This document shows positions 21,458-64,000 of a DNA stretch of 64,000 nucleotides, in pieces. The position numbers were made by a program, and so were the translations under genes. The notes under the pieces are model-generated. The model searched no databases. It was given only the letters and a program-made list of their open reading frames with translations, and had not been told where the DNA came from. Origin of the DNA: a virus. Positions within the stretch are counted from its first letter, which is position 1; each line of letters begins with the position of its first letter. Where the stretch lies: UHGV virus genome UHGV-1962423; one strand, written 5' to 3'.

Positions 21458-23641
21458 ATGCAGAGATTTAACATATTTCGTGAACAGAACATCGCGTTGG
21501 CGAAATCACTGATTATTAAATCAGAATCAATCGCACAACAGATGAATCTGGCAATAACCGAGAACGGCGGTTTCGTTTCCGATAACCGAAGTACGTGGCG
21601 ATACTACCTGCATTTAGCAGGACAACGTCACGAATGGGATAAGCCCATTTACATAACGTCGCTCGACACGCAAGAGCAGATAGAATTAACGACAGCCAAC
21701 CTGTCCCGTCATAAAAAGACCTCAAACGTATTTCGTTCGAACGGTGAGTACATTGAGGAGCTGATCAGAACGTATCCTGACTACGCGATTTATATCCGAG
21801 GTGTGTTTAATCCGGTGGATATAAACTACGCCATCCGTGTGGCTGATTGTTCTATTCTCTATTACGACAGTTCATTAGTGGAGTCGCAAGAGACGTCACT
21901 GATGTCGAGATTGGAAGACAGAATAAGGGCAGCTCACGTTCGCTATATGTCAGAAGGGTGGAAAGTTCACAACGATGCGTTCGTGTTAGCATTCTACTGT
22001 ATTCTGTATCCGCAGCTACCCGGCATTATCGGCTATATCCGTTCTTCTTTACAGCATACCACGGAAACACACTCGTTTTACGTGACAGAGTTCTTAGCAT
22101 CACACCAAGAACTTCACGAGTTTATGCCGTATCTGACCCAGAAACAGAAATTCATTCTTTATCGGAACATTCGTTACTGGGAACGTAACTCGGGGAAAGA
22201 GGAGATTTTCGACTGGCAGATTGATGCATTGCTGACAGGTTGGGGGATGCCTGCGGTTGGGTATAATGTTGCACAACAGATACACGAACCGAAGGATGAT
22301 GATGACTCCACGTTAACACCGTTACCGATCGGTTATCAGCAATCGCTTAACTATACGGAAAAGGATTCTGGTCGAGACCTTGACATTGTAACGACGACAG
22401 ACATTATCCAGAAGGAAGTCGCGTTAGCGTACAATAACCCGGCGTACGAACCGGAGTATCAGGAAGACTTAGATACCCGTTTAAGTTTAACGCAATACCC
22501 TAACCTGAAAACCAAACTCATTGAAGTTACAGCAGTCGACCCAGAAGCGATTGAGCGCTTCGAGTATCTGCATAACCTCTTTAACGAATGGGTACATCTC
22601 GTCGCGAAAGGGAAATACAACATTTACCACGAGATTCTTAACCCAACAAACGGGGATACCTTAAAGCTTAGCTCAAAAGAGTTATTGGCGCTGTTCTTAT
22701 ACGCGGCGTATAAAGGGTATTCTGACGTTGCGTTAGAAGAGATTCCTGCGTTCAACGTATTCGGGGTGTTAATCAAACGTTGGGTTTCGTTCGACGAAAT
22801 GGAACAACATTTAATCCCGAGCTGGGAAAACCGTTTCGAAGCGTTGATTAACTATTATACCGATACACACACAGAAGTCGTCGGAACGATTCTTAGTGCT
22901 GATGAACTCTACGACACGGTTAATGAAATCATTACCCAGAAACGTCGTCGTTGGCGTTATAGTCAAAACCGTCGGAAGATTCCTGACCGTGCTGCGGGCT
23001 TGATGCTGTTTAACTACCATTACCGTGATTATCGCTGCGATTTAAAACTGAACTACCGTAACTACGATGAGTTCTTTAAAACGTTCGGGTTAGATTATAC
23101 ATTGGTTTCGGCGGAGACGTGGCAAGACATTGCTATTGATGCGTTTAACACCGCGACTAACCTGGAAACCCGTGCAACGATTTCACAGTCTGAGATTCAG
23201 CGTGCAATGGTACGATTGATGACGAAGTTGTCATCCTACACCGTACATTTTGCTGCGCGAATGGGGTCAGATTCTTACGACGTTATGGACCCGCTCTGTC
23301 CCATCTTAGGGGATATCCCTATGAGTGGGGAGGGGACAATTACAATTATTGAACCCCTCTTAGGCGTACAGCAAGTTACGCGTCACCAGTATATATCCAC
23401 CGACACTGTGTTACCGGCAGCGCCTGTTATTAAAGAACTGTCGATGCCGCAGCACATCAAACTCAGGATGAACATTTACATGGGCATCCGAGTGAAAGTA
23501 ACACAGCAGGTTGTGGTGGATATTAACGAGCCGACTACCGGGGTTGTTAAAGTGAAATCTTCGCTTGACGATTGGACGTTAAACGAACAGGTGAAAATTA
23601 ACGATCTTGACGGCTTCACGCTTGACCAGCTACCTAAGTGA
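21458..23641 (+). CDS. hypothetical protein (727 aa)
   Basis: Track start TTG 21446; first ATG at 21458, 12 bp from the divergent minus-strand start. No Walker A motif seen. Confidence 0.75.
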   Translation: MQRFNIFREQNIALAKSLIIKSESIAQQMNLAITENGGFVSDNRSTWRYYLHLAGQRHEWDKPIYITSLDTQEQIELTTANLSRHKKTSNVFRSNGEYIEELIRTYPDYAIYIRGVFNPVDINYAIRVADCSILYYDSSLVESQETSLMSRLEDRIRAAHVRYMSEGWKVHNDAFVLAFYCILYPQLPGIIGYIRSSLQHTTETHSFYVTEFLASHQELHEFMPYLTQKQKFILYRNIRYWERNSGKEEIFDWQIDALLTGWGMPAVGYNVAQQIHEPKDDDDSTLTPLPIGYQQSLNYTEKDSGRDLDIVTTTDIIQKEVALAYNNPAYEPEYQEDLDTRLSLTQYPNLKTKLIEVTAVDPEAIERFEYLHNLFNEWVHLVAKGKYNIYHEILNPTNGDTLKLSSKELLALFLYAAYKGYSDVALEEIPAFNVFGVLIKRWVSFDEMEQHLIPSWENRFEALINYYTDTHTEVVGTILSADELYDTVNEIITQKRRRWRYSQNRRKIPDRAAGLMLFNYHYRDYRCDLKLNYRNYDEFFKTFGLDYTLVSAETWQDIAIDAFNTATNLETRATISQSEIQRAMVRLMTKLSSYTVHFAARMGSDSYDVMDPLCPILGDIPMSGEGTITIIEPLLGVQQVTRHQYISTDTVLPAAPVIKELSMPQHIKLRMNIYMGIRVKVTQQVVVDINEPTTGVVKVKSSLDDWTLNEQVKINDLDGFTLDQLPK

Positions 23642-23648
23642 GAAAACC

Positions 23649-24176
23649 ATGGCATATCGCGTCGACTTAACGAAAACTCCGAAACAAATTCTGGTAGATC
23701 GTATTAACTACGTTTTCGGGGTATCCTATACCACTGACAACATCGATTTTAACGATAAAGGTGTGCAACCACTGACGAAAGACGAAGCCCGTCGTTATGG
23801 ACTGGAATCGAAAGTGGCCGCTGACTTTAAAAACGGTGTTGCGGGGAACCAGGAATTCATCTTAACCCGTGTTGACCTGGCAGCGTTCTTAGCTGACGAA
23901 CCGGTTACGGTACCGAAAGGCGAAGTAACCAGCAGCCAAGAACTGGCAGACTATATCGTTGCTCAGACCGGTATTGATTTGACCAAAGACGACATTATGA
24001 TCGAGCCTATCAGTGAGGAACTCGATTCTTATGATGTTCGCTTAGTCCCGAATCACTTATCTTTTAAAGGAACGATTCCGGTCGTATTTACTGACCCCAC
24101 ACCACGTACGTTGGCGTCTCTCGTGACGAAACTTGCGCTGGACGGGTTCCGCCCTGGAGAATTAATCAATGTCTAA
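23649..24176 (+). CDS. hypothetical protein (175 aa)
   Basis: ATG 23649 follows upstream TGA; track ORF extends upstream into the previous gene. Confidence 0.65.
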   Translation: MAYRVDLTKTPKQILVDRINYVFGVSYTTDNIDFNDKGVQPLTKDEARRYGLESKVAADFKNGVAGNQEFILTRVDLAAFLADEPVTVPKGEVTSSQELADYIVAQTGIDLTKDDIMIEPISEELDSYDVRLVPNHLSFKGTIPVVFTDPTPRTLASLVTKLALDGFRPGELINV

Positions 24177-25056
24177 TGTCAAAGTTTACGACGGTAAACT
24201 CTCGACGGTAACACTTAATGCGATGCGTCTGGCTACCGCATTAATTACCGGTGCCGATGTGCAATACCCACAGAAGTCCACACTGAATGAGTTTTATAAG
24301 CTCATGCAAACCCCAGTGCCGGACGGTAAAGCACGTCCCCATTTGCAGTACATGGCGATTGGTAACCGTGGCCACATGGTCGACACATCAGATGTTGTTG
24401 CTGATGTTGTTCCTGTAGCTAAAGAACCTATCGCGTCCGGGATGTTTTCACGCGTTCCGTTTGTCCTGCGTACTAAAGACAACGATTTGTCTGATGAACA
24501 GCGTAAGAACTACGCTTTCCGTACTCTGGAAACCATCAACAAACGTGAGTATTGGGCGTACTATTTAAAACGCATTGACATGCGTGCAGTAAAAACTACC
24601 GACTACGACATTAAGCGTGAGAACGGTGTTGAAACTGTAGAAGACTTTGTTTATACGGACACTGAACTGAACCCAGTACCGAAAGTGTTGCCGGATTACG
24701 ATTACGATGATGACGGTACTGTTGCAATTCCAGATGGCCGTTATGTGGAATCAGGTGCAGACCTGGTTATCCCGTGGACGGACTTTGATGTTCAGGAGTA
24801 CATGAACGTGACCAGCATTATGCGCGGCAGCCCTCGTAGTTCGATTATCTCTGAACTGGCACTGTGCTCCGGTTTAGACCAGGTAACGTCTGGTGACTCT
24901 GCGACTGGTTCGAAGTTCAGTTACACTGAAGCTATTGGTGTACAAGCCCTGTATTACATTTCGATGTTTACTAACCTGGCGCAGACGAACGATAAATTGT
25001 CACTGACAATCCGTATCGGTCAACCTGCGCCGTTCTTCTTAGGGACAGCGAATTAA
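24169..25056 (+). CDS. hypothetical protein (295 aa)
   Basis: Start overlaps upstream stop (coupling). Confidence 0.75.
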   Translation: MSNVKVYDGKLSTVTLNAMRLATALITGADVQYPQKSTLNEFYKLMQTPVPDGKARPHLQYMAIGNRGHMVDTSDVVADVVPVAKEPIASGMFSRVPFVLRTKDNDLSDEQRKNYAFRTLETINKREYWAYYLKRIDMRAVKTTDYDIKRENGVETVEDFVYTDTELNPVPKVLPDYDYDDDGTVAIPDGRYVESGADLVIPWTDFDVQEYMNVTSIMRGSPRSSIISELALCSGLDQVTSGDSATGSKFSYTEAIGVQALYYISMFTNLAQTNDKLSLTIRIGQPAPFFLGTAN

Positions 25057-44060: not shown

Positions 44061-44108
44061 TCCTACCGCCCGATTCTATGGGCGGTAGGTGTTTTATTTT
44101 TTTTTTTG
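44061..44108 (+). terminator. rho-independent terminator
   Basis: cctaccgccc-gattctat-gggcggtagg followed by tgttttatttttttttttt. Confidence 0.8.
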
Positions 44109-44123: not shown

Positions 44124-44687
44124 GTGGCCACATCTTACGTACCTGATTTGAGTCTGACCTCAGCAGAGCTAGTGGTCGCTTTAATCAATCATGATAACGG
44201 GTTACAGCTTACGCTAAACGAAATCCGTATTAGCGGAACCGTAACAAACCCATCACCAACAACTTCGCGTCGTAACACCATCACCGAAATCAGTAAAATC
44301 AGAAAACCGGATGGTGCGTCTGTTGTGGTCTACTACGACAGACTTGACGCCGATGAGGTATTAACGTCTGAACCTATTTTGATTTCGTTAGACGGTACCG
44401 AAGCGAATATCCGTGACGTTCTGAGTGTTGTAAATGAACACTGCGGTACGAACTTACAGCCTGAAGACTTACGCGTTTCTGATATTACTTCAGGTAACGA
44501 TCCTATTGCCGTTAACGTTGCCGACGATTCACCTGCGTGGATGAATGCGTTTATGGTGACGTTATTTGATAAAACTGAGCGTGCGTTAGCGAACGAAGAA
44601 GATGAAATCTTCTGCATCGGTGACGATAGCGTTCTTACCTTTGAGGTTCCAGATGACGACTCAGCTGAAGAAAACCCGACTACATGA
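44124..44687 (+). CDS. small protein paired with downstream tail fibre, module A (187 aa)
   Basis: GTG start with GGAGGG RBS; clear paralog of 50418..50930 (PDLSLTS...V.L.NHD..LQL...NE, shared C-terminal CGIGDDSV.LTF); both sit directly upstream of a receptor-binding gene. Confidence 0.7.
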   Translation: MATSYVPDLSLTSAELVVALINHDNGLQLTLNEIRISGTVTNPSPTTSRRNTITEISKIRKPDGASVVVYYDRLDADEVLTSEPILISLDGTEANIRDVLSVVNEHCGTNLQPEDLRVSDITSGNDPIAVNVADDSPAWMNAFMVTLFDKTERALANEEDEIFCIGDDSVLTFEVPDDDSAEENPTT

Positions 44688-44892
44688 ACTTGATGATTTT
44701 TACCGGTAATGGAGGACAAAGCAAACTTTTATCAAGACTTAGCAAACCAAAATCATGAAAACGCGAAATTGAACATCGCTTTCACGTTAGAAGATGATGT
44801 ATTAAAACCAGGGCAATAGTAACCCGCTTATAAAAAATTGGGGGGTAAACTACTCTCCTGATCTTTTAGCTCCCGATAGAGAATTAAATATC

Positions 44893-47800
44893 ATGGCTAA
44901 AGCGGTAAAGAAAATTCGTTTACACGATTTACGTCCATACACCGGTGATATCGGTGAAGGCGTTTTACTTTTCTCCAAGGATGAGAAAGATTATAAGTTA
45001 CCAGTCCGTGAGGTTATTGCAGATATTGACACCGTACGTAATGCGGTGGCTGATGCACAAACAGCAGCAGCACAATCACAAGAAGCTGCAACTCAGGCTA
45101 CGCAAGCAAAAGTTTTAGCAGAAGCAGCAAAACAACAAACTGACACAGTTGCGGCAACGGTTGCACAACAAGCGCAAACCGTAACCGAAAAAGCAACAGA
45201 AGTCAGTACAAAACATACCGAAGTGTTAGCCGCGAAAACGGCGGTAGACGCTCAGGCTGTGTCCATTAATGAGAAAGCACAAGCGGTAGCGACAAGTGAG
45301 GCAAACGTCACACAAGCAGAAACTACCGTTACGAAGAAAGCAGAAACTGTTGCCACACAAGCCGGGCGGGTCGAACAGTCACTTACGGCAGTTAACGAAG
45401 CTGTTGCGTCGGTAGAGTCGTCGAAAGCTGCCGTAGAAGCTAAAGCAACACAAGTTACTTCAGACAAAGAAACCGCAGAGAATGCGGCAACTCGTTCTGA
45501 GGCAGCCGCTAAGCGTGCGGAAGAAATCGTTGCTCAAGGTACTGTTGATGCAACAACGACCAGTAAAGGTGTCGTTAAACTTAATAATACCTTAACCAGT
45601 GACTCTGTTACTGAAGCGGCTACACCGTCAACGGTTAAGCAGTTAAATGATGAATTGCAGTTAAAAGCAAACCGTCACAACCCAACTTTTACCGGTGTGG
45701 TAAAAGCACCGACTCCTGCTTCGGATTCTAACGACACGAGCGTCTCAACGACTGCATGGGTACGGCAAGCGATTGCTGAATTAGTGGACTCTTCACCCGA
45801 GACGTTAGATACGTTATCAGAAATTGCAGCCGCGTTAGGAAACGATCCTAACTTTGCGACAACGATAACGAACCAACTAGCGGGTAAACAGCCGTTAAGT
45901 CCGTTACTGACAGCGATTGCCGCAGTCACCACCGCTGCAAACAAACTCCCTTACTTTACCGGTAGTAATCAGGTAGGGTTAGCGGATTTCACCTCGACTG
46001 CTCGCGAATTATTAGCGAAAGGGTCGACGGCCGATATCATCAGCTTCCTGGGGTTGAAAACCACCGTTGATAAAGCTGCGGGCGCTATGCAACGTAGTTC
46101 TAACGGTGCCGATATTCCCGATAAAGCCACCTTCGCGAAGAACATCGGGTTGTCAGCAGAGACGTACCTGAAGTTTAATGGGGAGATGCCAGTAGATGCA
46201 GACATCAACACCTTCGGCCCGGTTGAAGCGTTTATGGGCGTTTGGTCTAAAGCCACGTCTACGAACGCAACAGTTGCAAAGAATTTTCCAGAAGAAAACG
46301 CAGTTGGTTGTTTAGAAGTTTTCAAAGCGGGTAACTACAGCGGAAGTCAACGTTTTACTGTACGTAACGGTAACATCTATACACGTCATCTTACTGCTGC
46401 ATGGAATGGGACAAACGGTCCTTGGTCAGAATGGCGTAATGTTGCTGGTTCCGCCAGAACGTTGAACGAACAAAATAATCTGAATGACTTGGGTGGTGAG
46501 GCCGCACTAGGTGTTTGGAGAAACAGTTCGAGTACATTAGCAACAACCGCGCTGAATTATCCTGAAGAAGGCTCTTTTGCCCAGGGCGTATTAGAAGTTC
46601 TCAAAGGTGGCAACTATAGTTACACACAACGCTACACTACCCGCAGAGGCAATGTATACGTTCGTTGTCTACAAGCCACGTGGGACGCTTCAAACCCGCA
46701 ATGGGAAGAATGGCGCTGTGTTGGTCATCAATCTGTCAGCACATATTTCGAAGGCGATCTCGACACGTTAACTTCGCCTAACCGTTATAGCATTACTGAT
46801 AAAGCGACAAACGTTCCTTTAATCGACGGTACTAAAATTATCGGTATCTTGGACGTCAGTCGTCGTTTTGATAACATTAGTGTCGAACAAAAATTCACCT
46901 CGTTTGGTTCTGGGAGCAAAACTACAGGGCGTATTTTCACACGTGTATTCTCCGGTCAATCAAACGGTAAATGGAGTGAGTGGCGAGAGGTTTTCACCTC
47001 GTATTCACTTCCGTTAGTTTTAGGTATCGGTGGGGTTGCAGCTAAGGTTGACCCGTTAGACTGGCAAACCTACGACTTCGTTCCTGGACAGATGTTAACG
47101 ACGCCGTTGAACACCATGAAAAACATTCCTGCAGGAATGGATTGGGGTACTATTGACGGTAACTTAGTTAACATCCTTGTAGGGCCGTCTGACGACACCG
47201 GTACTGGTCGGAGTATGCTGGTTTGGCGTAGCACAGTGTCTGTTGCTAACTATCGCTTCTTTGCGGTACGTATCGCTGGTGAGAAGGGTAGTCGTACGAT
47301 TACGCCGCGTCAGATGCCTGTGTTGAACGCAGCGCACACCTGGTCAGAGAAACAAACGTTCTCTAAAGGTTTAGCGGGTGAATTAACCGGTAATGCTTCT
47401 TCAGCAACGAAACTTCAAACAGCCCGTTTAATCGGCGGCGTAAGTTTCGACGGCACCAAGGACATTGCACTCCCTGGCGTTAACGCACAAGGTACGCAGA
47501 ACACCACTGGGAATGCGGCTACCGCAACCAAATTACAAACGGCTAGAAATATCAACGGTGTGAAATTCGATGGCTCTGGAGACATCAATATCAACACCTT
47601 AGTAGGTCGTGGACGTGTCACTGCTCTGGCTGGATCAAACAAAGGTACACCTGGTATCCAGATGTACGAGGTTTACAATAACGGTTATCCGACCGCGTAT
47701 GGTAATTTACTGCATTTAGGTGGTGCTACTGCCGTAGGTGAAGGTGAACTACTGATCGGTTGGTCTGGTACCAGTGGCGCACACGCACCTGTTTATATCC

Positions 47801-49209
47801 GTAGTCGTCGAGACACTACAGATGCGCCGTGGTCAGAATGGGCGCAAGTTTATACTGCACGAGACAGCATTCCGGGTGTCAACACCACAGGTAATCAGGA
47901 TACGACCGGAAACGCAGCTACCGCTACAAAACTTAAAACCACACGTAAAATAGGCGGGGTTAATTTTGACGGAACGGGTGATATTAACCTACCAGGTGTA
48001 AACCAGCAGGGCAACCAGAACACAACAGGTAACGCTGCGACAGCGACTAAACTCCAGACTGCCCGAAATATTGGTGGTGTGGCTTTCGATGGTACTAAAG
48101 ACATCAGTTTACCTGGGGTAAACCAAACAGGGAATCAGTCAACTACGGGGAACGCTGCTACTGCAACGAAGTTGCAGACAGCAAGAAGTATCAACAACGT
48201 ACCATTCGATGGTTCGAAAGATATTACTCTAACGCCAAGTAATATCGGTGCGGCTGCCTCCTCAATGACTTGGTTAAATACCGGGGATAATGGTGCAGCG
48301 CTTAGTACAGATTCTTTTATTACTTTGTTGCAAAATAACGGGGCTTTTAATTCCAGAACTTGGATAGCCCGATGCTCTTGGGCGTATGCTCAAAATGGCG
48401 TGATTCCAGATAGTGAAACAAAGTGCGGTACTATTCCACTTGCAGGCTCAGTTATTGAAGTTGTAAGTTTTGGGATGACCAACTACACCATTCGTATCAC
48501 AACCCCTACGACGACATCGGTTAGCGGAGCAAAAACCAACTCTGAGTTTATTTATTGCTATAATGGTAAAGATTATTCTCCAGGTTGGCGACGGCAGTAT
48601 AACACTGTTAATAAACCGTCTGCTAGTGACGTTGGCGCTCTACCAACTGGTGGCGGTACTGTCAGTGGCGATTTGACGGTTAATGGTAAACTGGTTACGA
48701 AAAATGCCGATTTTCGAATTGCTTACGGTAGTTACGGTTTCATTTTACGTAACGATGGCAATAGCACCTATTTCTTAGTAACAGCATCTGGTCAAGCTGC
48801 AACGGGTTCCTGGAATAACTTACGACCGATGTATTTTAGCAACTCTACCGGTCAAGTAACCTTCGGGCACAACGTTACTGGTAACGGGAACGGTTCGTTT
48901 AACGACGTACAGATTCGTTCTGACCGTCGTAACAAACGTAATCTGGTGAAACTGGATAATGCATTAGACCGTTTAGAACTCCTTACCGGGTATCTGTACG
49001 AAGTTCAACATCCTGACGATGGATGGAATACTTCGGTAGGCTTAATTGCCCAGGATGCATTAGTTGCGTTACCTGAATTGGTTACTGAAGACGATGACGC
49101 TATTTCTGGTGAAAAACGTTTACGTTTGAACTATAATGGTGTTATTGCGTTGTTGGTAGAGGGCATTAAAGACCTTCGTCGTGAGCTTAAGGAACTCAAG
49201 GGGAAATAA
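44893..49209 (+). CDS. long tail fibre protein with C-terminal intramolecular chaperone domain (1438 aa)
   Basis: N-terminal anchor shared with 50934 gene; Ala/Thr/Gln-rich coiled-coil; tandem TGNAATATKLQTAR.IGGV.FDGTKDI.LPGVN repeats like T4 gp12/gp34/gp37 fibre repeats; C-terminus SDRRNKRNLVKLDNALDRLELLTGYLYEV...GLIAQDALVALPELV matches the self-cleaving chaperone of endosialidase/L-shaped fibre proteins. Confidence 0.85.
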   Translation: MAKAVKKIRLHDLRPYTGDIGEGVLLFSKDEKDYKLPVREVIADIDTVRNAVADAQTAAAQSQEAATQATQAKVLAEAAKQQTDTVAATVAQQAQTVTEKATEVSTKHTEVLAAKTAVDAQAVSINEKAQAVATSEANVTQAETTVTKKAETVATQAGRVEQSLTAVNEAVASVESSKAAVEAKATQVTSDKETAENAATRSEAAAKRAEEIVAQGTVDATTTSKGVVKLNNTLTSDSVTEAATPSTVKQLNDELQLKANRHNPTFTGVVKAPTPASDSNDTSVSTTAWVRQAIAELVDSSPETLDTLSEIAAALGNDPNFATTITNQLAGKQPLSPLLTAIAAVTTAANKLPYFTGSNQVGLADFTSTARELLAKGSTADIISFLGLKTTVDKAAGAMQRSSNGADIPDKATFAKNIGLSAETYLKFNGEMPVDADINTFGPVEAFMGVWSKATSTNATVAKNFPEENAVGCLEVFKAGNYSGSQRFTVRNGNIYTRHLTAAWNGTNGPWSEWRNVAGSARTLNEQNNLNDLGGEAALGVWRNSSSTLATTALNYPEEGSFAQGVLEVLKGGNYSYTQRYTTRRGNVYVRCLQATWDASNPQWEEWRCVGHQSVSTYFEGDLDTLTSPNRYSITDKATNVPLIDGTKIIGILDVSRRFDNISVEQKFTSFGSGSKTTGRIFTRVFSGQSNGKWSEWREVFTSYSLPLVLGIGGVAAKVDPLDWQTYDFVPGQMLTTPLNTMKNIPAGMDWGTIDGNLVNILVGPSDDTGTGRSMLVWRSTVSVANYRFFAVRIAGEKGSRTITPRQMPVLNAAHTWSEKQTFSKGLAGELTGNASSATKLQTARLIGGVSFDGTKDIALPGVNAQGTQNTTGNAATATKLQTARNINGVKFDGSGDININTLVGRGRVTALAGSNKGTPGIQMYEVYNNGYPTAYGNLLHLGGATAVGEGELLIGWSGTSGAHAPVYIRSRRDTTDAPWSEWAQVYTARDSIPGVNTTGNQDTTGNAATATKLKTTRKIGGVNFDGTGDINLPGVNQQGNQNTTGNAATATKLQTARNIGGVAFDGTKDISLPGVNQTGNQSTTGNAATATKLQTARSINNVPFDGSKDITLTPSNIGAAASSMTWLNTGDNGAALSTDSFITLLQNNGAFNSRTWIARCSWAYAQNGVIPDSETKCGTIPLAGSVIEVVSFGMTNYTIRITTPTTTSVSGAKTNSEFIYCYNGKDYSPGWRRQYNTVNKPSASDVGALPTGGGTVSGDLTVNGKLVTKNADFRIAYGSYGFILRNDGNSTYFLVTASGQAATGSWNNLRPMYFSNSTGQVTFGHNVTGNGNGSFNDVQIRSDRRNKRNLVKLDNALDRLELLTGYLYEVQHPDDGWNTSVGLIAQDALVALPELVTEDDDAISGEKRLRLNYNGVIALLVEGIKDLRRELKELKGK
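47385..48240 (+). repeat. tandem in-frame coding repeats of the fibre motif
   Basis: At least five copies of the ~25-50 aa unit; nucleotide copies differ at synonymous positions. Confidence 0.7.
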
Positions 49210-49212
49210 AGG

Positions 49213-49755
49213 ATGGCAGTTGTTGAAGTTCCAGGTTATATCGGTTCTTCTGCAAAGGAAGTTACTGGCGAAGAGATGATGTCTGAAGCGATGACCGAAC
49301 TCGGCGTTGTCGTACCAGGGATGATGTCTGAAATGGCAGGTCTGTCAATGGGTTGCTATGTAACGTTTGAGGAGTGGACTACCGTTGAAGATGGCCTTGA
49401 TGTTCGATGGATCGGTGCGTCTACTTCCGAGTGGACAGACGGCTACGGCAAACCGGTCGTTAAAGGAAAAATATCCGGGGCGAAGATGTTTGGTTTGAAT
49501 GTCGAAGCGGAGCTGATCGGAATGCACTATAAAAAGCATCCGCGATTCCCTTGGTCAGTCGAACTAAAATGTCGCTGCGAAAAAGGTAGCAATTTCAGTT
49601 ATACGTTAGACGGTGTAAGCGGTTCTGTATCGAGTGATGGTACCGGTACAACCGGAATGCAAATTCGTACATTCAAATTTAACAATTTCAGTGCAGCATT
49701 TAAGGAAAAGATAGAGCAAGTTGGTGTCAAGATGCCAACATCACGTAAATATTAA
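49213..49755 (+). CDS. hypothetical protein downstream of tail fibre, paralog 1 (180 aa)
   Basis: MAVVEVPGYIGSSAKEVTGEEMMSE...MGC; paralogous N-terminus to 49812 gene (MAV....G..GSSAK.ETGE..MS.A...LG...P.MMS.M.G.SMGC). Confidence 0.7.
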   Translation: MAVVEVPGYIGSSAKEVTGEEMMSEAMTELGVVVPGMMSEMAGLSMGCYVTFEEWTTVEDGLDVRWIGASTSEWTDGYGKPVVKGKISGAKMFGLNVEAELIGMHYKKHPRFPWSVELKCRCEKGSNFSYTLDGVSGSVSSDGTGTTGMQIRTFKFNNFSAAFKEKIEQVGVKMPTSRKY

Positions 49756-49799
49756 AAGAGTAGCGTAGGGGTGACCTCCCCCCTACGCGAATCTTAACA

Positions 49800-49809
49800 G
49801 GGGGGGGGG
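49800..49809. repeat. G10 homopolymer tract immediately upstream of start codon 49812
   Basis: Ten consecutive G directly read in sequence, 2 nt before the ATG; preceded by hairpin gcgtagggg...cccctacgc at 49763-49788. Confidence 0.9.
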
Positions 49810-49811
49810 TA

Positions 49812-50315
49812 ATGGCGGTTAACTCGGGTTGGGTCGGTTCTTCGGCTAAGAGCGAAACGGGCGAACAGTGGATGAGCGCTGCGGGTGCCAAATTGGGATT
49901 GGGTAAACCTTTTATGATGAGTCAAATGGTGGGACGATCTATGGGCTGTAAAATTTCAACTGCTGCATATAGTGATTCTTTAGGTAAGAAATGGGGTGCT
50001 GTGGGATCAAGTTGGCCATTAACTCAGAAAAATCAGGGAACCATTCAAAACGCGGGTAACTGCGGGGTGGGAACTTTAGTAGGTATAGAGTTACAATTAA
50101 CGACGGTAGTTGCCAACGCAACGCCTACTCTAGCGGTCTATTTACAAGGCGGCAGGGCCTCTAACATCACTGCAAATCTAGGCGGTAACACTTGTGCGCT
50201 GACCTATCAGCAGGTTATTAATGGCCAACATTATTACTGGACCAATAACATTAGTGCCGCGTTCCAAAACGTGATGAAATCGACCGGTACACTAAGAGAT
50301 TTCAAAATTAGTTAA
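49812..50315 (+). CDS. hypothetical protein downstream of tail fibre, paralog 2 (167 aa)
   Basis: Paralog of 49213 gene; start codon directly after the G10 tract. Confidence 0.65.
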   Translation: MAVNSGWVGSSAKSETGEQWMSAAGAKLGLGKPFMMSQMVGRSMGCKISTAAYSDSLGKKWGAVGSSWPLTQKNQGTIQNAGNCGVGTLVGIELQLTTVVANATPTLAVYLQGGRASNITANLGGNTCALTYQQVINGQHYYWTNNISAAFQNVMKSTGTLRDFKIS

Positions 50316-50352
50316 TTATTTTTCAAACGAATGTGTTTGAAAACGTAATCGA

Positions 50353-50362
50353 GGGGGGGGGG
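50353..50362. repeat. second G10 homopolymer tract in intergenic region
   Basis: Ten consecutive G, 55 nt upstream of GTG 50418. Confidence 0.9.
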
Positions 50363-50417
50363 TGAAGTGTTTTTAGCCAACATTTTATGTCTCCCCAACC
50401 GTAGGAGGTAAATATAC

Positions 50418-50930
50418 GTGGAACAATTCACGCCAGATTTGTCGTTAACTTCACTTAACATGGTTATTTCACTGGTTAACCATGACCTCCAACTTGACTT
50501 GCAAGAGAATGAGGTCGAAGTCAGTGACGTAAAGACCAGTGACGAAATGGAACGTGACACCACTGCTGTTGTAAAGATAAAACGTTCTGGTAACAGAACG
50601 TTACAAATCTACTACAACCGTTTAACTGCAGAGCGGTGGTTAAACCGACAACCTGTACTTGTAAAAGTAACAGGCGAAGGGTTTAATGCGCACGATCTAA
50701 TCGAATCCATCAACACCGTTTGTGGTGCTAACTTACAAACCGACGATTTAACCGACCAGTCGTTCACGGTGGGTAAAGACGCGGTAATATTTAGCATCGC
50801 TCCGAGTTCCCTCGGCTACAAAGGTCAGTTCTCCGTGGTGGTTTTCGGTCCAGATGAAACACCGTGTGGTATCGGTGACGATTCTGTCGTGCTAACGTTT
50901 GACAATAAAATCTTAACCTTTGGAGAGTAA
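50418..50930 (+). CDS. small protein paired with downstream receptor-binding protein, module B (170 aa)
   Basis: GTG start with AGGAGG RBS; paralog of 44124..44687. Confidence 0.7.
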   Translation: MEQFTPDLSLTSLNMVISLVNHDLQLDLQENEVEVSDVKTSDEMERDTTAVVKIKRSGNRTLQIYYNRLTAERWLNRQPVLVKVTGEGFNAHDLIESINTVCGANLQTDDLTDQSFTVGKDAVIFSIAPSSLGYKGQFSVVVFGPDETPCGIGDDSVVLTFDNKILTFGE

Positions 50931-50933
50931 TAG

Positions 50934-53066
50934 ATGAGTCAGCCAATTGGAAAGAAGCGTATTCATGAGCTGGAAACATTTGAAGGTGAATTAGCAGGAG
51001 TCGTTCTGCTGATGTCCAAAGACGACAAAGAATATAAACTTGACGCATCTCGTTTACAAAACGATAAGCTGTATCTAGCTTGCGGTACACCTTTTCCTAA
51101 ACTAGTATTCCAAAACGATAAAACACTTTACAATATTAATCCGTACAGTGACTACGACACTTATGAAGTTTCTGCAAATAAAGGTCGGGTATCTAAAGTT
51201 ACTCGTGCCACATTTAGCGTGATGGCTGGGTCTTTATCGGTTGGCGAGAAAATACAACTTACAGTTACGCGCAATGGCGTACCATTTCAATTTGAAGTTA
51301 CCGTATCGGGACCGCGTATCACTACTCCCACTTGGACACTTCCAGTTAATGGCGGTAAATTGAGCGTAACGCCAACCTTTGAAGTAACTGACTATCAAGC
51401 CTATCCATATACCAACACCGGTAATCAACAGACCGCTGCCAGTTGGGAAATTTCCACTAGTGAAGATTTCTCAACTACAGTTTTCCAATCACTGAACGAC
51501 ACCGTCAACAAAACAACCATCAGTATCCCAGAAGGTAAGTTAGAACCAGGTCAAACTTACTACGCACGTGTTCGCTTCCATAACGCAGTAACCGAAAGTG
51601 ATTGGTCCGTTGTTCAATTCTCAGTCGGCGAAGCATTTATTCAGCGTCCTGCACTGATCGAACCCACCGTAGACATGGTGTTAAGCGCATCGAATATTAC
51701 ACTTAAAACTGATGTTTTTAAATGGGTCGGTGACGAACCTGCGGAGACCCACGTATCGACTGACTGGCAGGTTACTTACGGTAGCAACGATTTTGACGAA
51801 ATGAATAATCTCGTTAACCAATTAGAAGATGCGATTAACCTGACGTCGCTTAAATTACCGTCTGATCGGGTTTACGTTAATAACAGTTATCGTGCACGCG
51901 TGCGTTTTCGTGGTGAGAGAAGCGTCAGTGATTGGTCTGAACCTTTAACGTTCCGTGTAAGTCGCGGGAACGTACCAACAAGTGAATTCCAGTCAATTTC
52001 TGCTTCTGGATTTACAGGTAATTCAATCGGTGCTGAGTTGGCATGTACTGACGACGGTTTGCTGTTTGCTGCTACTGGCGTTGCACAGAAAGCGAAATTC
52101 TTACATATCTTTAAGAAAGACTTCCCGTCTTACAACAAAGTTGCCTCTTTAACAGCTGCTACTGAGGTTGACGCAGACAGAGATGGTCGCTGTCCGGTCA
52201 GTATGTCAGCCGACGGTAAGATTATTGTTGTCGGTGTTAGCGCATCTAAAGCTAACGAAGACCACGGCGAAGTTATCGTTTACCGTAACCCAGATAACGC
52301 TGAGTGGAGTACAATCAACGGAATAACTTTAGCGGGATTACCCACAGAAGGGTTCCATGGCCTTGCAGTAAAACTGTCAAAAGACGGCAATCGTTTGATT
52401 GTGGGTAACGGTACGAAAGTGCTGTCTATGTATTCCAATACCGATCAATTTGCTACACGTACGGCTGTGTCGCCGACACTAAGTGCCGAAGACGCCACTT
52501 GTGGTGGTATTGGTAGCATTGCAATGTCTGAAGACGGTAACGGTTTAGTGCTTGGCGAAACTAACGGAACGAAATTCCACGTACTGGCTTGGGAATCGGA
52601 TAGTTGGGTGACTAAGGCATCTATTACACCAAAAGACTTGACTGAGAAAGCAACGATTAAAGTCGCTGCTTCTTCTGACTTGTCTACGATTCTTGTTTCT
52701 GTAGTTGAGACACACAAATACTACGTTTACAAGAAAACCGGTGATAGTTGGTCTCTGTTCCAAACCTTGGATTATACCGAACTGGATTACTCCATTACTT
52801 CTACCCGTTACCCGACGGGAGACATTAATGTTGCGCCTTCCGGAAGCTGGTTAATTTTCGGTATGGTGGGTTCGTTGGGTTCTATTTTCGAATTTCGTAA
52901 TAGTACCTACCAACGACAAAATAGCATTTACGGCAGTAGTCTTAGCGATCCTGAGAATTACCACTTCTATACGTCACAAGCCATCAGTGCACAAAACGAT
53001 TTGTTCGTCGGTGCTGATGTTAAAGAAAGTGCTTCGTACTTCCCACAAATCAAAGTTTACATGTAA
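50934..53066 (+). CDS. second receptor-binding protein (tail fibre/spike) with shared N-terminal anchor (710 aa)
   Basis: N-terminus KKRIHELETFEGELAGVVLLMSKDDKEYKL parallels KKIRLHDLRPYTGDIGEGVLLFSKDEKDYKL of the 1438-aa fibre; central Ig/FN3-like stretches; C-terminal repeated ..DG..IVVG.. units suggestive of a beta-propeller (inference). Confidence 0.6.
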   Translation: MSQPIGKKRIHELETFEGELAGVVLLMSKDDKEYKLDASRLQNDKLYLACGTPFPKLVFQNDKTLYNINPYSDYDTYEVSANKGRVSKVTRATFSVMAGSLSVGEKIQLTVTRNGVPFQFEVTVSGPRITTPTWTLPVNGGKLSVTPTFEVTDYQAYPYTNTGNQQTAASWEISTSEDFSTTVFQSLNDTVNKTTISIPEGKLEPGQTYYARVRFHNAVTESDWSVVQFSVGEAFIQRPALIEPTVDMVLSASNITLKTDVFKWVGDEPAETHVSTDWQVTYGSNDFDEMNNLVNQLEDAINLTSLKLPSDRVYVNNSYRARVRFRGERSVSDWSEPLTFRVSRGNVPTSEFQSISASGFTGNSIGAELACTDDGLLFAATGVAQKAKFLHIFKKDFPSYNKVASLTAATEVDADRDGRCPVSMSADGKIIVVGVSASKANEDHGEVIVYRNPDNAEWSTINGITLAGLPTEGFHGLAVKLSKDGNRLIVGNGTKVLSMYSNTDQFATRTAVSPTLSAEDATCGGIGSIAMSEDGNGLVLGETNGTKFHVLAWESDSWVTKASITPKDLTEKATIKVAASSDLSTILVSVVETHKYYVYKKTGDSWSLFQTLDYTELDYSITSTRYPTGDINVAPSGSWLIFGMVGSLGSIFEFRNSTYQRQNSIYGSSLSDPENYHFYTSQAISAQNDLFVGADVKESASYFPQIKVYM

Positions 53067-53075
53067 GGAAACGCG

Positions 53076-53636
53076 ATGAAATATGCTTATTTAAAAGACG
53101 GTAATGTGATCGACTGGAATGTTACCGAAGACATGATTGCTTTGCGTGGCCACACTGTAGATATTTATACGCCTGTAGTAGAATCTGCTAAACCGGTTGT
53201 TAACCCTGATTGTTATATCGTGTTCGAAACAACACCAAAACTGGTAAAAGGCAAGCTGGTTCAACAGTGGGTGACTGAAGTGCTGCCTAAAGAAACGGTA
53301 GTACGTAACCAGAAGGCACGTTTAGCGGAAATTCGTTATGCGAAAGAAACTGCCGGGATTACGTTTAAAGACCAAACTATTCCTACGACACGTGATGTAC
53401 GTTATCAGTTAATTCAGTCTAAACACGTTGATTCTACGCAACCTATTAACTGGAAGCTAGGCGATACGTGGCTAAGTCTTACTCAGGAAGACATTGATGC
53501 GCTGCTGGTTGCAATCGCAACTTATGTTGAGAAATGCTACGCGGCAGAACGCACAGTCTCCGAGAAAATCACTAAGGTGAAAGCACCTGAAAAACTGGAT
53601 GTAGAAACCTTATTTAACGACGCTTTCGCAGCGTAA
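53076..53636 (+). CDS. hypothetical protein, possible fibre assembly or accessory factor (186 aa)
   Basis: Immediately downstream of the second receptor-binding gene; role inferred from position only. Confidence 0.6.
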   Translation: MKYAYLKDGNVIDWNVTEDMIALRGHTVDIYTPVVESAKPVVNPDCYIVFETTPKLVKGKLVQQWVTEVLPKETVVRNQKARLAEIRYAKETAGITFKDQTIPTTRDVRYQLIQSKHVDSTQPINWKLGDTWLSLTQEDIDALLVAIATYVEKCYAAERTVSEKITKVKAPEKLDVETLFNDAFAA

Positions 53637-53640
53637 CACG

Positions 53641-53683
53641 GTAGCAGGGGCTAAGCCCCTGCTACCTTTTTCTTTATTTTTTC
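53641..53683 (+). terminator. rho-independent terminator
   Basis: gtagcagggg-ctaa-gcccctgctac followed by ctttttctttatttttt. Confidence 0.8.
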
Positions 53684-61774: not shown

Positions 61775-62623
61775 ATGTCTCTTACGTCAAAACAGAAACT
61801 GCTAAAACTCATCAACACTGAAAACAATATTAGTCCACCGTTGACTTTCAGTGATGTTGATATCGGAGAACCTACTGGTACTGGGGTTGATACCCAGGTG
61901 GTTCTGACCTCTAAACTCAAAGGCGATGAGTCTACTACTTTAACAGTGACTTACCACCGTCGTAATTTACCTGACTACTTAACCGGTGAGTTGGTTTTCG
62001 GTAACGACAGTGTGGTAACCGCATCAGATTTGCTTAATGCGATCAACGCAAAATACAACCTAAATATTTTACCCTCGGATATCGTTGACGCAAAAGTTGA
62101 AGGTGAAACCCATCAGCTTACCGCTAACGAGAAATCTTACGAGTGGTGCGGTGTAGTAACACTTACGCTGCGTGATCCTATTGACCTGACTGAACTGTTA
62201 CCAGTTACTCAATTAGAGAATCTGGTAGAGTATCCGTCCACTAAGAAAGGTAACGCTGCGGTTTATTCTCACCCGATCGATTTCACCGCAGAAAAAGATT
62301 ACCTTGACCCGATTACTATCAACGACACCGTAGACTTGGTCGAGTTAGCCGCTAAACTGGATGGCGTCGTTGACGAGAAATGGGTAAGTGTGCCTAAGAA
62401 CGCGACTAACAACCTGTACGGTGCGAAGGTTATTTACGATGGCCCAACCGCAGGTTACGAAGGCGCAAATACGAAGTTCACTCGTGTGTTGGTGCTGACG
62501 CTCAGCCCGCTGTGTTCTAACCTGACAGGTAATCTGTTAATCCACTTTAACGGTACCGATCGTCCGAAGTCGAAGATTGAATTAGCACAGACTAATCCGG
62601 TCTTACCGGGATTCTTAGATTAA
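61775..62623 (+). CDS. hypothetical protein (282 aa)
   Basis: Long ORF; paralogous to the following truncated gene. Confidence 0.75.
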   Translation: MSLTSKQKLLKLINTENNISPPLTFSDVDIGEPTGTGVDTQVVLTSKLKGDESTTLTVTYHRRNLPDYLTGELVFGNDSVVTASDLLNAINAKYNLNILPSDIVDAKVEGETHQLTANEKSYEWCGVVTLTLRDPIDLTELLPVTQLENLVEYPSTKKGNAAVYSHPIDFTAEKDYLDPITINDTVDLVELAAKLDGVVDEKWVSVPKNATNNLYGAKVIYDGPTAGYEGANTKFTRVLVLTLSPLCSNLTGNLLIHFNGTDRPKSKIELAQTNPVLPGFLD

Positions 62624-62636
62624 GAGGATTACAGTA

Positions 62637-63161
62637 ATGACCAATCAAGAAACTATCTTCGACCTTATTAAAAAGGCTAACCCAGACGCTGAGTTCGACA
62701 CCACCAAAGTCACACTGGGTGACCCGGTCGTAACCACCGGTACGTACAATACCGAAATCACAGTTGCGTCAATTAAGAATCTCGGTTATACTAACGAACA
62801 AACGTTCCAGTATAACCGGATCGACGCAGGTTTGTATTTCCTGAACGTATTACCGAAACTGTTGGTGGAATCGGCAACAACGACCGCTGACTTACTGCCT
62901 GTCATTAACGAGCAGTACAGCCTAACCCTTACAGAAGACGATGTATGGGTAGAGCAGGTTGGTGAGTTACCGTTAGACGGAAGCGCAATCGAACACGGTA
63001 TTTTCTTCCGTCCTGAGTGTCTGACCTGGGTTGGCGGTTTTACAGTGCGAGTTGCGCGTAAACCGGCTGGCGCTACGCCACCCGAGACATGGAGGAGCCC
63101 CAGACCGCCGAATCCTGGCGCACCATGCCCCAGAAGGCGGCCGAGTGGTGGAAAAAGGTAA
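62637..63161 (+). CDS. paralog of 61775 gene, disrupted at the composition junction near 63070
   Basis: First ~145 codons are phage-like and align to the upstream paralog; the remaining frame runs into high-GC DNA with implausible Pro/Arg-rich translation. Confidence 0.5.
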   Translation: MTNQETIFDLIKKANPDAEFDTTKVTLGDPVVTTGTYNTEITVASIKNLGYTNEQTFQYNRIDAGLYFLNVLPKLLVESATTTADLLPVINEQYSLTLTEDDVWVEQVGELPLDGSAIEHGIFFRPECLTWVGGFTVRVARKPAGATPPETWRSPRPPNPGAPCPRRRPSGGKR

Positions 63162-63229
63162 ACGCAGGTGAAATTGAGAACCCGTTTATTTTCGAGCACA
63201 GCAACGAGCCGGAGGACTACGAGTTTTAA
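63089..63229 (+). CDS. small hypothetical ORF in high-GC segment (46 aa)
   Basis: Not in track. ATG 63089 to TAA 63227-63229; followed by a 10-bp-stem hairpin (63241-63273). Weak evidence. Confidence 0.25.
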   Translation: MEEPQTAESWRTMPQKAAEWWKKVNAGEIENPFIFEHSNEPEDYEF

Positions 63230-63304
63230 TTCCAAAGCGCGGAAGAAGGGGCGGCCGGTACGTCCCTTCTTCCTGTGCATTGCTTATAAAGGAGTGTCAC
63301 AGCT

Positions 63305-64000
63305 ATGGCAAAGACCATCATCACCGCCGCGCTGACCGGCGCGGTCACCCCCGCGGGCTACAAGATCCCCGAGACGCCCCAGCAGATCGCCAACGAGGCT
63401 TACGACGCCTGGAAGCTGGGCGCCGCCGTGGTACACCTGCACATGCGGGCCGACGACGGCCTGGGTGCCATGGACAAGGAGAAATTCCGGGAGACCATCC
63501 GGCTTATCCGCAGCCACCAGGACTGTGATGTCATTATCAACTGCACCTCCTCCGGCGCTTCTGCCGAGCATCCCGCCACGGATGAGGAGCGGATGGCCCA
63601 TCACCGGGAGCTGGAGGGCATCGAGATGGGTTCCTATGATGCCGGTACCTTCAACTGGATGCCCGGCGGCGTGTTCGTCAACTCCCCCCAGTTCCTCGAG
63701 AAGCTGGGCGATCTTTACATGGAGAAGGGCATCAAGCCGGAGCTGGAGATCTTTGACGCTGGCATGCTGGGCGTGGCCAGCTACTTCGTGAAGAAGGGCC
63801 ACCTGTCCACCCCCTGCCACTACCAGTTCTGCCTGGGCGTGCTGGGCGGCATGCCCGCCACGGTGGAGAACCTGCTCTACCTGGTGCAGCACATCCCCGC
63901 CGGTTCCACCTGGTCGGCCTTCGGCGTGGGCAAGGGCCCCCTGCCCATCCTGTTCGCCTCCCTGGCCCTGGGCGGCCACATCCGCGTGGGCATGGAGGAC
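63305..64000 (+). CDS. kce: 3-keto-5-aminohexanoate cleavage enzyme-like protein (BKACE/DUF849), 3'-truncated at window edge
   Basis: Not in track because no stop in window. AAAGGAG RBS then MAKTIITAALTGAVTP..., HLHMRADDG, GGHIRVGMED; GC-rich third codon positions; frame open to the end of the window. Confidence 0.7.
   Translation, partial: MAKTIITAALTGAVTPAGYKIPETPQQIANEAYDAWKLGAAVVHLHMRADDGLGAMDKEKFRETIRLIRSHQDCDVIINCTSSGASAEHPATDEERMAHHRELEGIEMGSYDAGTFNWMPGGVFVNSPQFLEKLGDLYMEKGIKPELEIFDAGMLGVASYFVKKGHLSTPCHYQFCLGVLGGMPATVENLLYLVQHIPAGSTWSAFGVGKGPLPILFASLALGGHIRVGMED

Follow-up and report, generated by a model that had tools for sequence, protein, structure and literature searches.

A receptor-binding-protein locus of an Erskinevirus-like jumbo phage, with unrelated binders behind a common N-terminal anchor and next to short DUF7941 genes

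How can one phage present several unrelated receptor-binding proteins on its virion, and through which part would they be attached? The question is raised by positions 44124-53636 on the plus strand of a 64,000-nt stretch of the virus genome UHGV-1962423 (the window, i.e., the whole stretch that was analysed). The original prediction placed here two symmetric modules, each consisting of a small and a large protein, and all open reading frames (ORFs) that it named are present. The region is the receptor-binding-protein locus, or operon, of a chimallivirus, namely a phiKZ/SPN3US-type, Erskinevirus-like jumbo phage. In our opinion, it is reasonably probable that the binders encoded in this locus are tethered to the periphery of the baseplate via short proteins of the DUF7941 family and that their distal parts are exchangeable. 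Little has been established about host recognition by nucleus-forming jumbo phages. In Goslar, the fibres and the periphery of the baseplate are unresolved, and those of phiKZ are represented only by backbone models from docked AlphaFold predictions. The relatives compared were SPN3US (L001), Asesino (L002) and the contigs L003, L004, L005 and L007-L011, of which L007 corresponds to GCA_007320275.1 and L009 to GCA_007509455.1. Coordinates and family assignments are collected in Table 1.

The two large proteins of the locus, a fibre of 1438 aa and a protein of 710 aa, are alike in residues 1-36 (44% identity, E=3e-7) and in no other significant segment. A common N-terminus in front of unrelated distal parts had been predicted, and it is real; its proposed length of ~45 aa was an overestimate. 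In a multiple alignment with 12 further proteins, the conserved block reaches approximately residue 41, so that the anchor comprises ~36-41 aa. Its consensus is M-x4-KK-x-[LI]-x-[DE]-L-x2-[YF]-x5-6-G-x-[LV]-L-[YFLM]-[ST]-x-[DE]-x2-[DE]-Y-[KQ]-[LF], and this segment by itself is not covered by any Pfam or PHROG family. In SPN3US, it heads the 156-aa "tail fiber protein" encoded after the DUF7941 gene, which has counterparts in Asesino, EC001 and pEa_SNUABM_29. It also heads the 153-aa adapter of L005 and the 206-aa and 133-aa proteins of L007-L011. In Klebsiella phage Eowyn, it is found on at least six tail-fibre- or depolymerase-like proteins, whose genes alternate with those of five short DUF7941 proteins (a seventh gene lies outside this reading).

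A tblastn search with the 45-aa anchor returned 24 phage records, in which every match lies directly after a short DUF7941 gene; EC001, pEa_SNUABM_29 and Eowyn have the same adjacency. The paired genes overlap or are separated by 1-13 nt in most cases, which, as judged from the sequence, suggests translational coupling. The locus and its relatives together yield a testable rule, according to which a conserved 40-aa anchor beside a short DUF7941 gene marks receptor binders.

In the window, the short DUF7941 proteins are small A (187 aa) and small B (170 aa). They align over the full length with 33% identity (BLASTP E=1e-31) and are thus paralogs, as had been proposed. The proposed GTG starts are likewise sound: a GGAGG-type ribosome-binding site lies 5-9 nt before each GTG, and orthologs in the relatives also start with GTG. 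No DNA repeats linking the two modules were found; the duplication is therefore ancient, and a recent one is rejected. The Pfam DUF7941 (PF25613) bit scores of small A and small B are 71.5 and 51.4, respectively, against a gathering cut-off of 27, and small A is 45-47% identical to its orthologs in SPN3US and Asesino. The AlphaFold2 model of small B, with a predicted local distance difference test score (pLDDT) of 85, has a sole significant fold match in the PDB, the N-terminal domain of phiKZ gp127 in a cryo-EM model of the outer peripheral baseplate (9xqd_0; E=4e-9; template-modelling scores 0.62/0.69). The small proteins of receptor loci end in a tail with the motif D-E-x-hhxh-GDDxhLTF, whereas the linker of canonical DUF7941 proteins, by which one protomer docks on the next in head-to-tail oligomers, reads DLxxLLxxxxLxGLxY; the tail is present and the motif is different.

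The family has been placed in the virion of two other phages. In phiKZ, gp127 is modelled in the outer baseplate, where it ends the gp139 band of each baseplate "star lobe", and in Goslar the DUF7941 proteins gp22 and gp23 are present in roughly 580 and 2140 copies per virion, respectively (bioRxiv 10.64898/2026.04.21.720040; Nat Commun 2026, PMC13250141). Purified Goslar gp22 forms filaments, and three other DUF7941 proteins of Goslar carry fused carbohydrate-binding, hydrolase or leucine-rich-repeat domains (bioRxiv 10.64898/2026.04.21.720040; PMC13250141). It should be noted that the DUF7941 link has been described only in an April 2026 preprint. The location in the virion, at the periphery of the baseplate, is known only for the phiKZ and Goslar homologs, and by analogy small A and small B would occupy a similar place. 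A role as adaptors, one of two that had been suggested for the small proteins, is therefore reasonable in view of the phiKZ outer-baseplate family and the Goslar filaments.

The other suggested role, that of assembly partners, would make small A and small B non-structural chaperones of the downstream proteins that stay outside the virion, in the manner of tail-fibre assembly proteins. The tight coupling of the small genes to large fibre genes is indeed usual for chaperones. The abundance of family members in Goslar virions and the place of gp127 in the phiKZ baseplate model speak for a structural role, the fibre has an S74 chaperone domain of its own, and the small genes precede the large ones, whereas a fibre gene is normally followed by the gene of its chaperone. 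For these reasons we regard a chaperone function as highly improbable and retain the reading of small A and small B as structural adaptors.

Exchange of the parts behind the anchor is visible within the clade. The slot behind small B holds the 710-aa gene and a DUF4376 gene in the window, L003 and L005, a 206-aa gene in L007-L010, and genes for 133-aa and 348-aa proteins in L011, and the first protein in each case bears the same anchor. The adhesin slot downstream of the fibre gene is also variable among sister genomes, and nucleotide identity to relatives along the locus is mosaic, ranging from 68% to 92%. The prediction of exchangeable cassettes with a conserved N-terminus is thus borne out, both within and between genomes, by unrelated distal parts behind one anchor and by slot swaps in sister phages.

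The pairing of small A with the fibre is not original. The 205-nt gap between small A and the fibre gene contains relics of two deleted genes (Table 1), which means that small A came to stand beside the fibre secondarily, as a product of deletion. In L005 the genes run from small A through the 153-aa adapter, the 1001-aa tail protein, the fibre, a pair of gp38 adhesins and small B to those of the 710-aa and DUF4376 proteins; the adapter and tail-protein pair fills 3.4 kb where the window has the gap, and the L005 fibre lacks a DUF7941 gene dedicated to it. The adapter gene is also intact in SPN3US and Asesino, and a relic of the 1001-aa gene (43 codons) is present in L008 and L011. To go by these sequences, the ancestral neighbour of small A is an SPN3US-type adapter with its 1001-aa tail protein, lost in the window. 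Two small/large pairs do exist, as predicted; the picture of two symmetric modules is incomplete, and two gp38-type adhesin genes between them had gone unnoticed, together with the DUF4376 gene at 53076, the relics of the deleted module and the domain composition of the 710-aa protein.

The 710-aa protein, whose gene begins 3 nt after the stop codon of small B, is predicted to consist of the anchor (residues 1-41, disordered or hairpin), three Ig/FN3-like domains (~60-343) and a 7-bladed beta-propeller (~367-710). Of the expectation that both large proteins are fibre- or spike-like, the fibre part is supported by Pfam and PDB homology, and the 710-aa protein is modelled as an FN3-like stalk with a propeller, not as a classical spike. 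By sequence it has no match among PDB chains at E<=1 and no homology to phiKZ gp131 or to the gp131-like N-terminal domain, and the gp131 propeller is not among the top fold-search matches of its model. Close relatives are absent from the phage collection and from GTDB genomes, and IMG/VR holds only distant relatives of the FN3 region. The 186-aa DUF4376 protein is a putative accessory or assembly partner of this binder; its gene accompanies the 710-aa gene in L003, L004 and L005, and L003 has a second pair of a tail-fibre-like gene and a DUF4376 gene.

It may be asked whether the 710-aa protein is rather a structural or enzymatic protein of the baseplate periphery, e.g., a propeller enzyme acting on a surface polysaccharide, so that host specificity would lie with the fibre and its gp38 adhesins alone. 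Beta-propellers are often enzymes, as the phiKZ atlas says for gp131 (PMC13250141), and none of the homologs of the 710-aa protein has a known receptor function. The protein nevertheless bears the same anchor as proven fibre-type proteins, unrelated proteins replace it at the same slot in sister phages, as is typical of host-range determinants, and its identity to orthologs falls to 68-73%, compared with 70-91% for small B. We consider an exclusively structural or enzymatic role improbable and continue to treat the 710-aa protein as a receptor-binding protein candidate.

In the fibre, the anchor (1-41) is followed by an Ala/Gln/Thr-rich segment (by inspection, a putative coiled coil), Phage_fiber_2 repeats, the Gp34_trimer domain, a tip resembling that of S16 gp37, and a C-terminal Peptidase_S74 chaperone domain (PF13884, residues 1343-1397, E=3e-9). 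In characterised fibres, the Peptidase_S74 domain cleaves itself off. PDB matches of the fibre include Mu S (8ju3, 5e-31), T4 gp34 and the S16 gp37 tip (6f45_A, 1e-13). In the Salmonella assemblies L007 (8080-8478) and L009 (8140-8610), gene calls cover only a short C-terminal part of the fibre (132-156 aa), and the sister Logan contigs L008 and L010 contain a full-length gene (1477-1533 aa); the short calls may reflect frameshifts or assembly errors in this repetitive gene.

Directly downstream of the fibre gene lie two genes of gp38-type adhesins, gp38a and gp38b, which are paralogs (E=3e-14). The gp38b slot is kept in all relatives examined. The N-terminus of gp38b matches S16 gp38 (6f45_D, E=3e-4), and gp38b and a protein of E. 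coli phage CMS-2020a have 63% identity over the full length. In an alignment with S16 gp38, gp38b retains W7 and W20 and has Met in place of a third aligned Trp of S16 (for the critical Trp residues of the attachment helices, the source is a figure legend only); the three aligned positions of gp38a are occupied by Y, M and M. The polyglycine-sandwich domain (PF05268, GP38) has no Pfam match in either protein and is present in the 260-aa adhesin of L007 and L009. Both adhesins are therefore best filed as gp38_N-anchored proteins with a different head (phrog_1121). Judging by these similarities, gp38a and gp38b most likely form the receptor-binding part of module A. In S16, one gp38 caps the gp37 trimer (PDB 6F45); the presence of two adhesins for one fibre tip suggests a mixed fibre population.

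Two further observations concern this slot. The DNA encoding the attachment domain of gp38b (~150 nt, 49812-49960) is 85-89% identical to adhesin genes of the Shiga toxin (Stx)-converting phages P13374, phi191 and 75/02 Stx and of CMS-2020a, which implies that a small module was recently exchanged between phages of unrelated types. A GC-rich hairpin with a 9-bp stem (49763-49788), located in the 56-nt spacer of the gp38 paralogs, might act as an attenuator or mark a boundary of recombination in the variable adhesin slot.

Docking of the anchor on the short DUF7941 proteins is argued from gene linkage, from the location of the family and from natural fusions. An exhaustive DUF7941 profile search gave 2764 representative clusters, many with tandem N-terminal domains. 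In many representatives, the N-terminal domain is fused to Ig-like repeats and "DGxTW"-repeat regions, which by inspection are likely propellers, or to other C-terminal extensions. Such proteins constitute gene-fusion evidence that DUF7941 tethers receptor-binding domains. The anchor motif is absent from all 12 of the 12 DUF7941-receptor-binding-domain fusions inspected from this search, and a word-indexed profile search for a natural fusion of short DUF7941, anchor and binder gave only 27 short proteins. The possibility that the anchor mimics the DUF7941 linker or the tail of the small proteins, suggested by a loose likeness by eye, was rejected after hhalign of a 14-sequence anchor profile (P=0.44 with full-length and 0.29 with short DUF7941).

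Several observations weigh against the proposed arrangement. The numbers of anchored and small DUF7941 proteins do not correspond one to one, L005 having three and two, and Eowyn at least six and five in the stretch read. The Goslar fibre gp90 follows the short DUF7941 gene gp91 and yet has no anchor, and the anchor has no profile similarity to the DUF7941 linker or to the tails of the small proteins (hhalign P=0.3-0.4). As for the binders, the structure model of the 710-aa protein is only moderately confident (pLDDT 66.6) and its propeller could be enzymatic rather than adhesive, and gp38a lacks both Trp positions common to gp38b and S16 gp38.

The mismatched stoichiometry and the lack of sequence similarity between anchor and DUF7941 docking elements speak for an alternative in which the binders dock on another baseplate protein; the small DUF7941 proteins would be independent outer-baseplate parts or members of a Goslar-type "fibre cloud", with genes next to those of the binders only through the clustering of structural genes. 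Canonical DUF7941 genes cluster together without anchored partners, and phiKZ fibres attach beneath gp130 by gp131-like N-terminal domains, not by gp127 (PMC13250141). Against another dock, the same groups of phages have both the anchor and the short DUF7941 proteins with a "GDDxVLTF" tail, the genes being adjacent, and often overlapping, in every inspected case, and there are natural fusions of DUF7941 with domains of receptor-binding type. We consider it unlikely, though deserving more weight than the chaperone and enzyme alternatives, and we prefer tethering via the short DUF7941 proteins.

According to this preferred reading, the ~40-residue anchor of each binder would plug it into the baseplate periphery, and the most likely socket would be the short DUF7941 protein encoded just upstream, i.e., small A or small B. 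These would in turn join an outer-baseplate DUF7941 scaffold, for which the pair encoded at 61775 and 62637 (the 282-aa and the gp23-like protein) provides candidate partners. Parts distal to the anchor would be exchangeable. The first binder would be a long fibre with a T2/S16 gp37-like tip and a Peptidase_S74 chaperone, capped by gp38a or gp38b as alternatives; the second, an FN3-like stalk with a terminal 7-bladed beta-propeller, probably aided by the DUF4376 protein. A third, the SPN3US-like 153-aa adapter with its 1001-aa tail protein, has been lost from this genome through the 3.4-kb deletion. Instead of the dual specificity that had been proposed, up to three specificities per phage may exist (gp38a, gp38b and the propeller).

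A broader and more tentative generalization is that enterobacterial chimalliviruses may use a split plug and socket. A ~40-aa peptide on any binder, be it a fibre, a depolymerase, a propeller protein or a small adapter, would dock non-covalently onto GDDxVLTF-tailed short DUF7941 proteins that polymerise into an outer-baseplate scaffold, and binders would be gained, lost or swapped as cassettes. If true, this would be the non-fused counterpart of the Goslar DUF7941-receptor-binding-domain fusions and a portable handle for re-targeting jumbo phages. Docking of the anchor on DUF7941 would, if correct, offer a defined handle for engineering their host range; these phages are of therapeutic interest, since the nucleus protects them against many defences. 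To combine a constant N-terminus with an exchangeable distal part is a well-known and fairly typical phage way of switching host specificity, and in this respect the surprise is moderate. Here, natural exchange and loss of cassettes are visible within one clade, the DNA of which occurs in assemblies of Salmonella and Shigella isolates.

Comparison with other systems helps to delimit what is particular to this locus. Goslar gp23 and gp91 have a DUF7941 N-terminal domain and a short tail, as do small A and small B, and gp91 lies directly upstream of the tail fibre gene gp90; in Goslar gp86, gp92 and gp161, however, the binders are fused to DUF7941, whereas here they are separate polypeptides with a 40-aa anchor of their own. 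SPN3US and Asesino have the same gene order and anchor, namely a short DUF7941 protein (the ortholog of small A), the 156-aa "tail fiber protein" (phrog_9017) and a tail protein of ~1005 aa (phrog_2871), with anchors 56-58% identical to that of the fibre. They differ in having one module each; the window has lost that module and instead encodes two different proteins with the anchor, together with a second DUF7941 paralog. The cluster of Klebsiella phage vB_KvM-Eowyn follows the same design at higher multiplicity, with differences in genus (Eowynvirus), in anchor variant (KK-L-[ST]-D-L-P-x-Y...LLY) and in the distal domains.

The fibre resembles the long-tail-fibre tip of T2 and S16 in that its C-terminus is homologous to the S16 gp37 tip and Gp38_N adhesin genes lie directly downstream. 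The phage of the window is, however, a chimallivirus and not a member of Straboviridae, the polyglycine-sandwich domain is missing, and there are two paralogous adhesins per fibre. phiKZ gp131-gp135 are likewise fibre paralogs with a common N-terminal attachment part that differ distally, although the common element here is a 40-aa peptide, not a folded domain with a helical bundle. Like the 710-aa model, gp131 has a terminal 7-bladed beta-propeller, for which host contact has been proposed (PMC13250141); the analogy is one of design only. Phages with several tailspikes (CBA120 TSP1-4, phi92, G7C gp63.1/gp66, SP6/K1-5) also combine a conserved N-terminal dock with swappable distal parts and several specificities per virion; their anchors are unrelated in sequence, and the DUF7941 partner is specific to chimalliviruses.

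Table 1. Features of the locus and the DUF7941 genes further downstream
Feature	Position	Strand	Evidence or remark
Left-border terminator, closing the upstream unit	44062-44089	+	11-bp stem, 8 GC pairs, then T-run
Small A, 187-aa short DUF7941 protein, GTG start; N-terminal globular domain and D-E-x-IFCIGDDSVLTF tail	44124-44687	+	Pfam DUF7941 E=1e-19; phrog_2935 E=4e-28
Adapter relic: 16 initial codons of an SPN3US-type 153-aa adapter gene (MTTQLKKTRLHELDDF), overlapping the end of small A, then stop	44653-44709	+	tblastn against L005 adapter: 75% identity over 16 aa, E=2e-5
Tail-protein relic: ~31 terminal codons of the SPN3US-type gene for the 1001-aa tail protein	44709-44819	+	tblastn: 52% identity over 31 aa, E=2e-7
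Tail fibre, 1438 aa	44893-49209	+	Pfam Gp34_trimer 1.7e-22, Phage_fiber_2, Peptidase_S74; many tail-fibre PHROGs
gp38a, 180-aa gp38-type adhesin paralog, divergent attachment domain	49213-49755	+	Pfam Gp38_N (PF21721) 4.4e-11; phrog_1121 "tail fiber adhesin"
gp38b, 167-aa gp38-type adhesin	49812-50315	+	Gp38_N (PF21721) 1.2e-20; phrog_1121 1e-45
Small B, 170-aa short DUF7941 protein, GTG start, GIGDDSVVLTFDNKILTF tail	50418-50930	+	Pfam DUF7941 1.4e-13; phrog_2935
Receptor-binding protein candidate, 710 aa	50934-53066	+	
DUF4376 protein, 186 aa	53076-53636	+	Pfam DUF4376 2.4e-12; phrog_10508 "tail fiber protein"
Right-border terminator	53640-53666	+	12-bp stem, 9 GC pairs, then T-run; conserved in L003, L005
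Full-length DUF7941 protein, 282 aa, resembling Goslar gp22/phiKZ gp127	61775-62623	+	Pfam DUF7941 1.4e-51; PDB PHIKZ127 E=6e-6
Short DUF7941 protein resembling Goslar gp23, cut at the chimeric junction 63088	from 62637	+	Pfam DUF7941 4.3e-28

Strong intrinsic terminators flank the locus on both sides (Table 1); no other plus-strand terminator in the region is as strong. A scan for sigma-70 promoters gave only background-level matches and is uninformative for such phages. The assignment of the phage agrees with its major capsid protein (761 aa), which is ~80% identical to those of Erwinia phages phiEaH2 and Asesino and 78% identical to that of Salmonella phage SPN3US, and the large ORFs of the window match PHROGs from phiKZ-like jumbo phages. 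A DNA search of the locus against isolated phages revealed no close one, the only match being the 150 nt of gp38b shared with Stx phages. The near relatives are contigs of 221-227 kb from metagenomes and from NCBI assemblies of Salmonella enterica and Shigella flexneri.

In total, the window contains five DUF7941 genes: small A, small B, 23607-24176, 61775-62623 and 62637-63088. The first of the remaining three adjoins a DUF7208 gene (24169-25056), and the pair corresponding to the last two adjoins an endolysin gene in the relatives, as in Goslar. Paralogous "virion structural proteins" of ~270 aa, encoded downstream of the receptor-binder locus in SPN3US (L001, 21575-24519) and Asesino (L002, 26444-28543), are also weakly similar to the N-terminal domain of DUF7941 (tblastn E=1e-5 to 1e-9). 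In the literature on SPN3US proteomics, the counterparts of the locus genes are not singled out.

The 3' end of the window is chimeric. Homology to the sister phages ends at 63088, GC content rises to 0.54 in 63089-64000, and 63305-64000 encodes a bacterial beta-keto-acid cleavage enzyme (BKACE, PF05853, E=2.5e-72). This is probably an assembly join. The ORF at 62637-63161 has an artificial C-terminus owing to the junction, where the relatives have a GH108 endolysin. Finally, whole genomes of the clade (~221-226 kb) occur as contigs in isolate assemblies of Salmonella enterica (Agona, Weltevreden, Chester and Enteritidis) and Shigella flexneri, and their presence in cultured isolates may point to a nucleus-forming jumbo phage in a carrier state or in pseudolysogeny.

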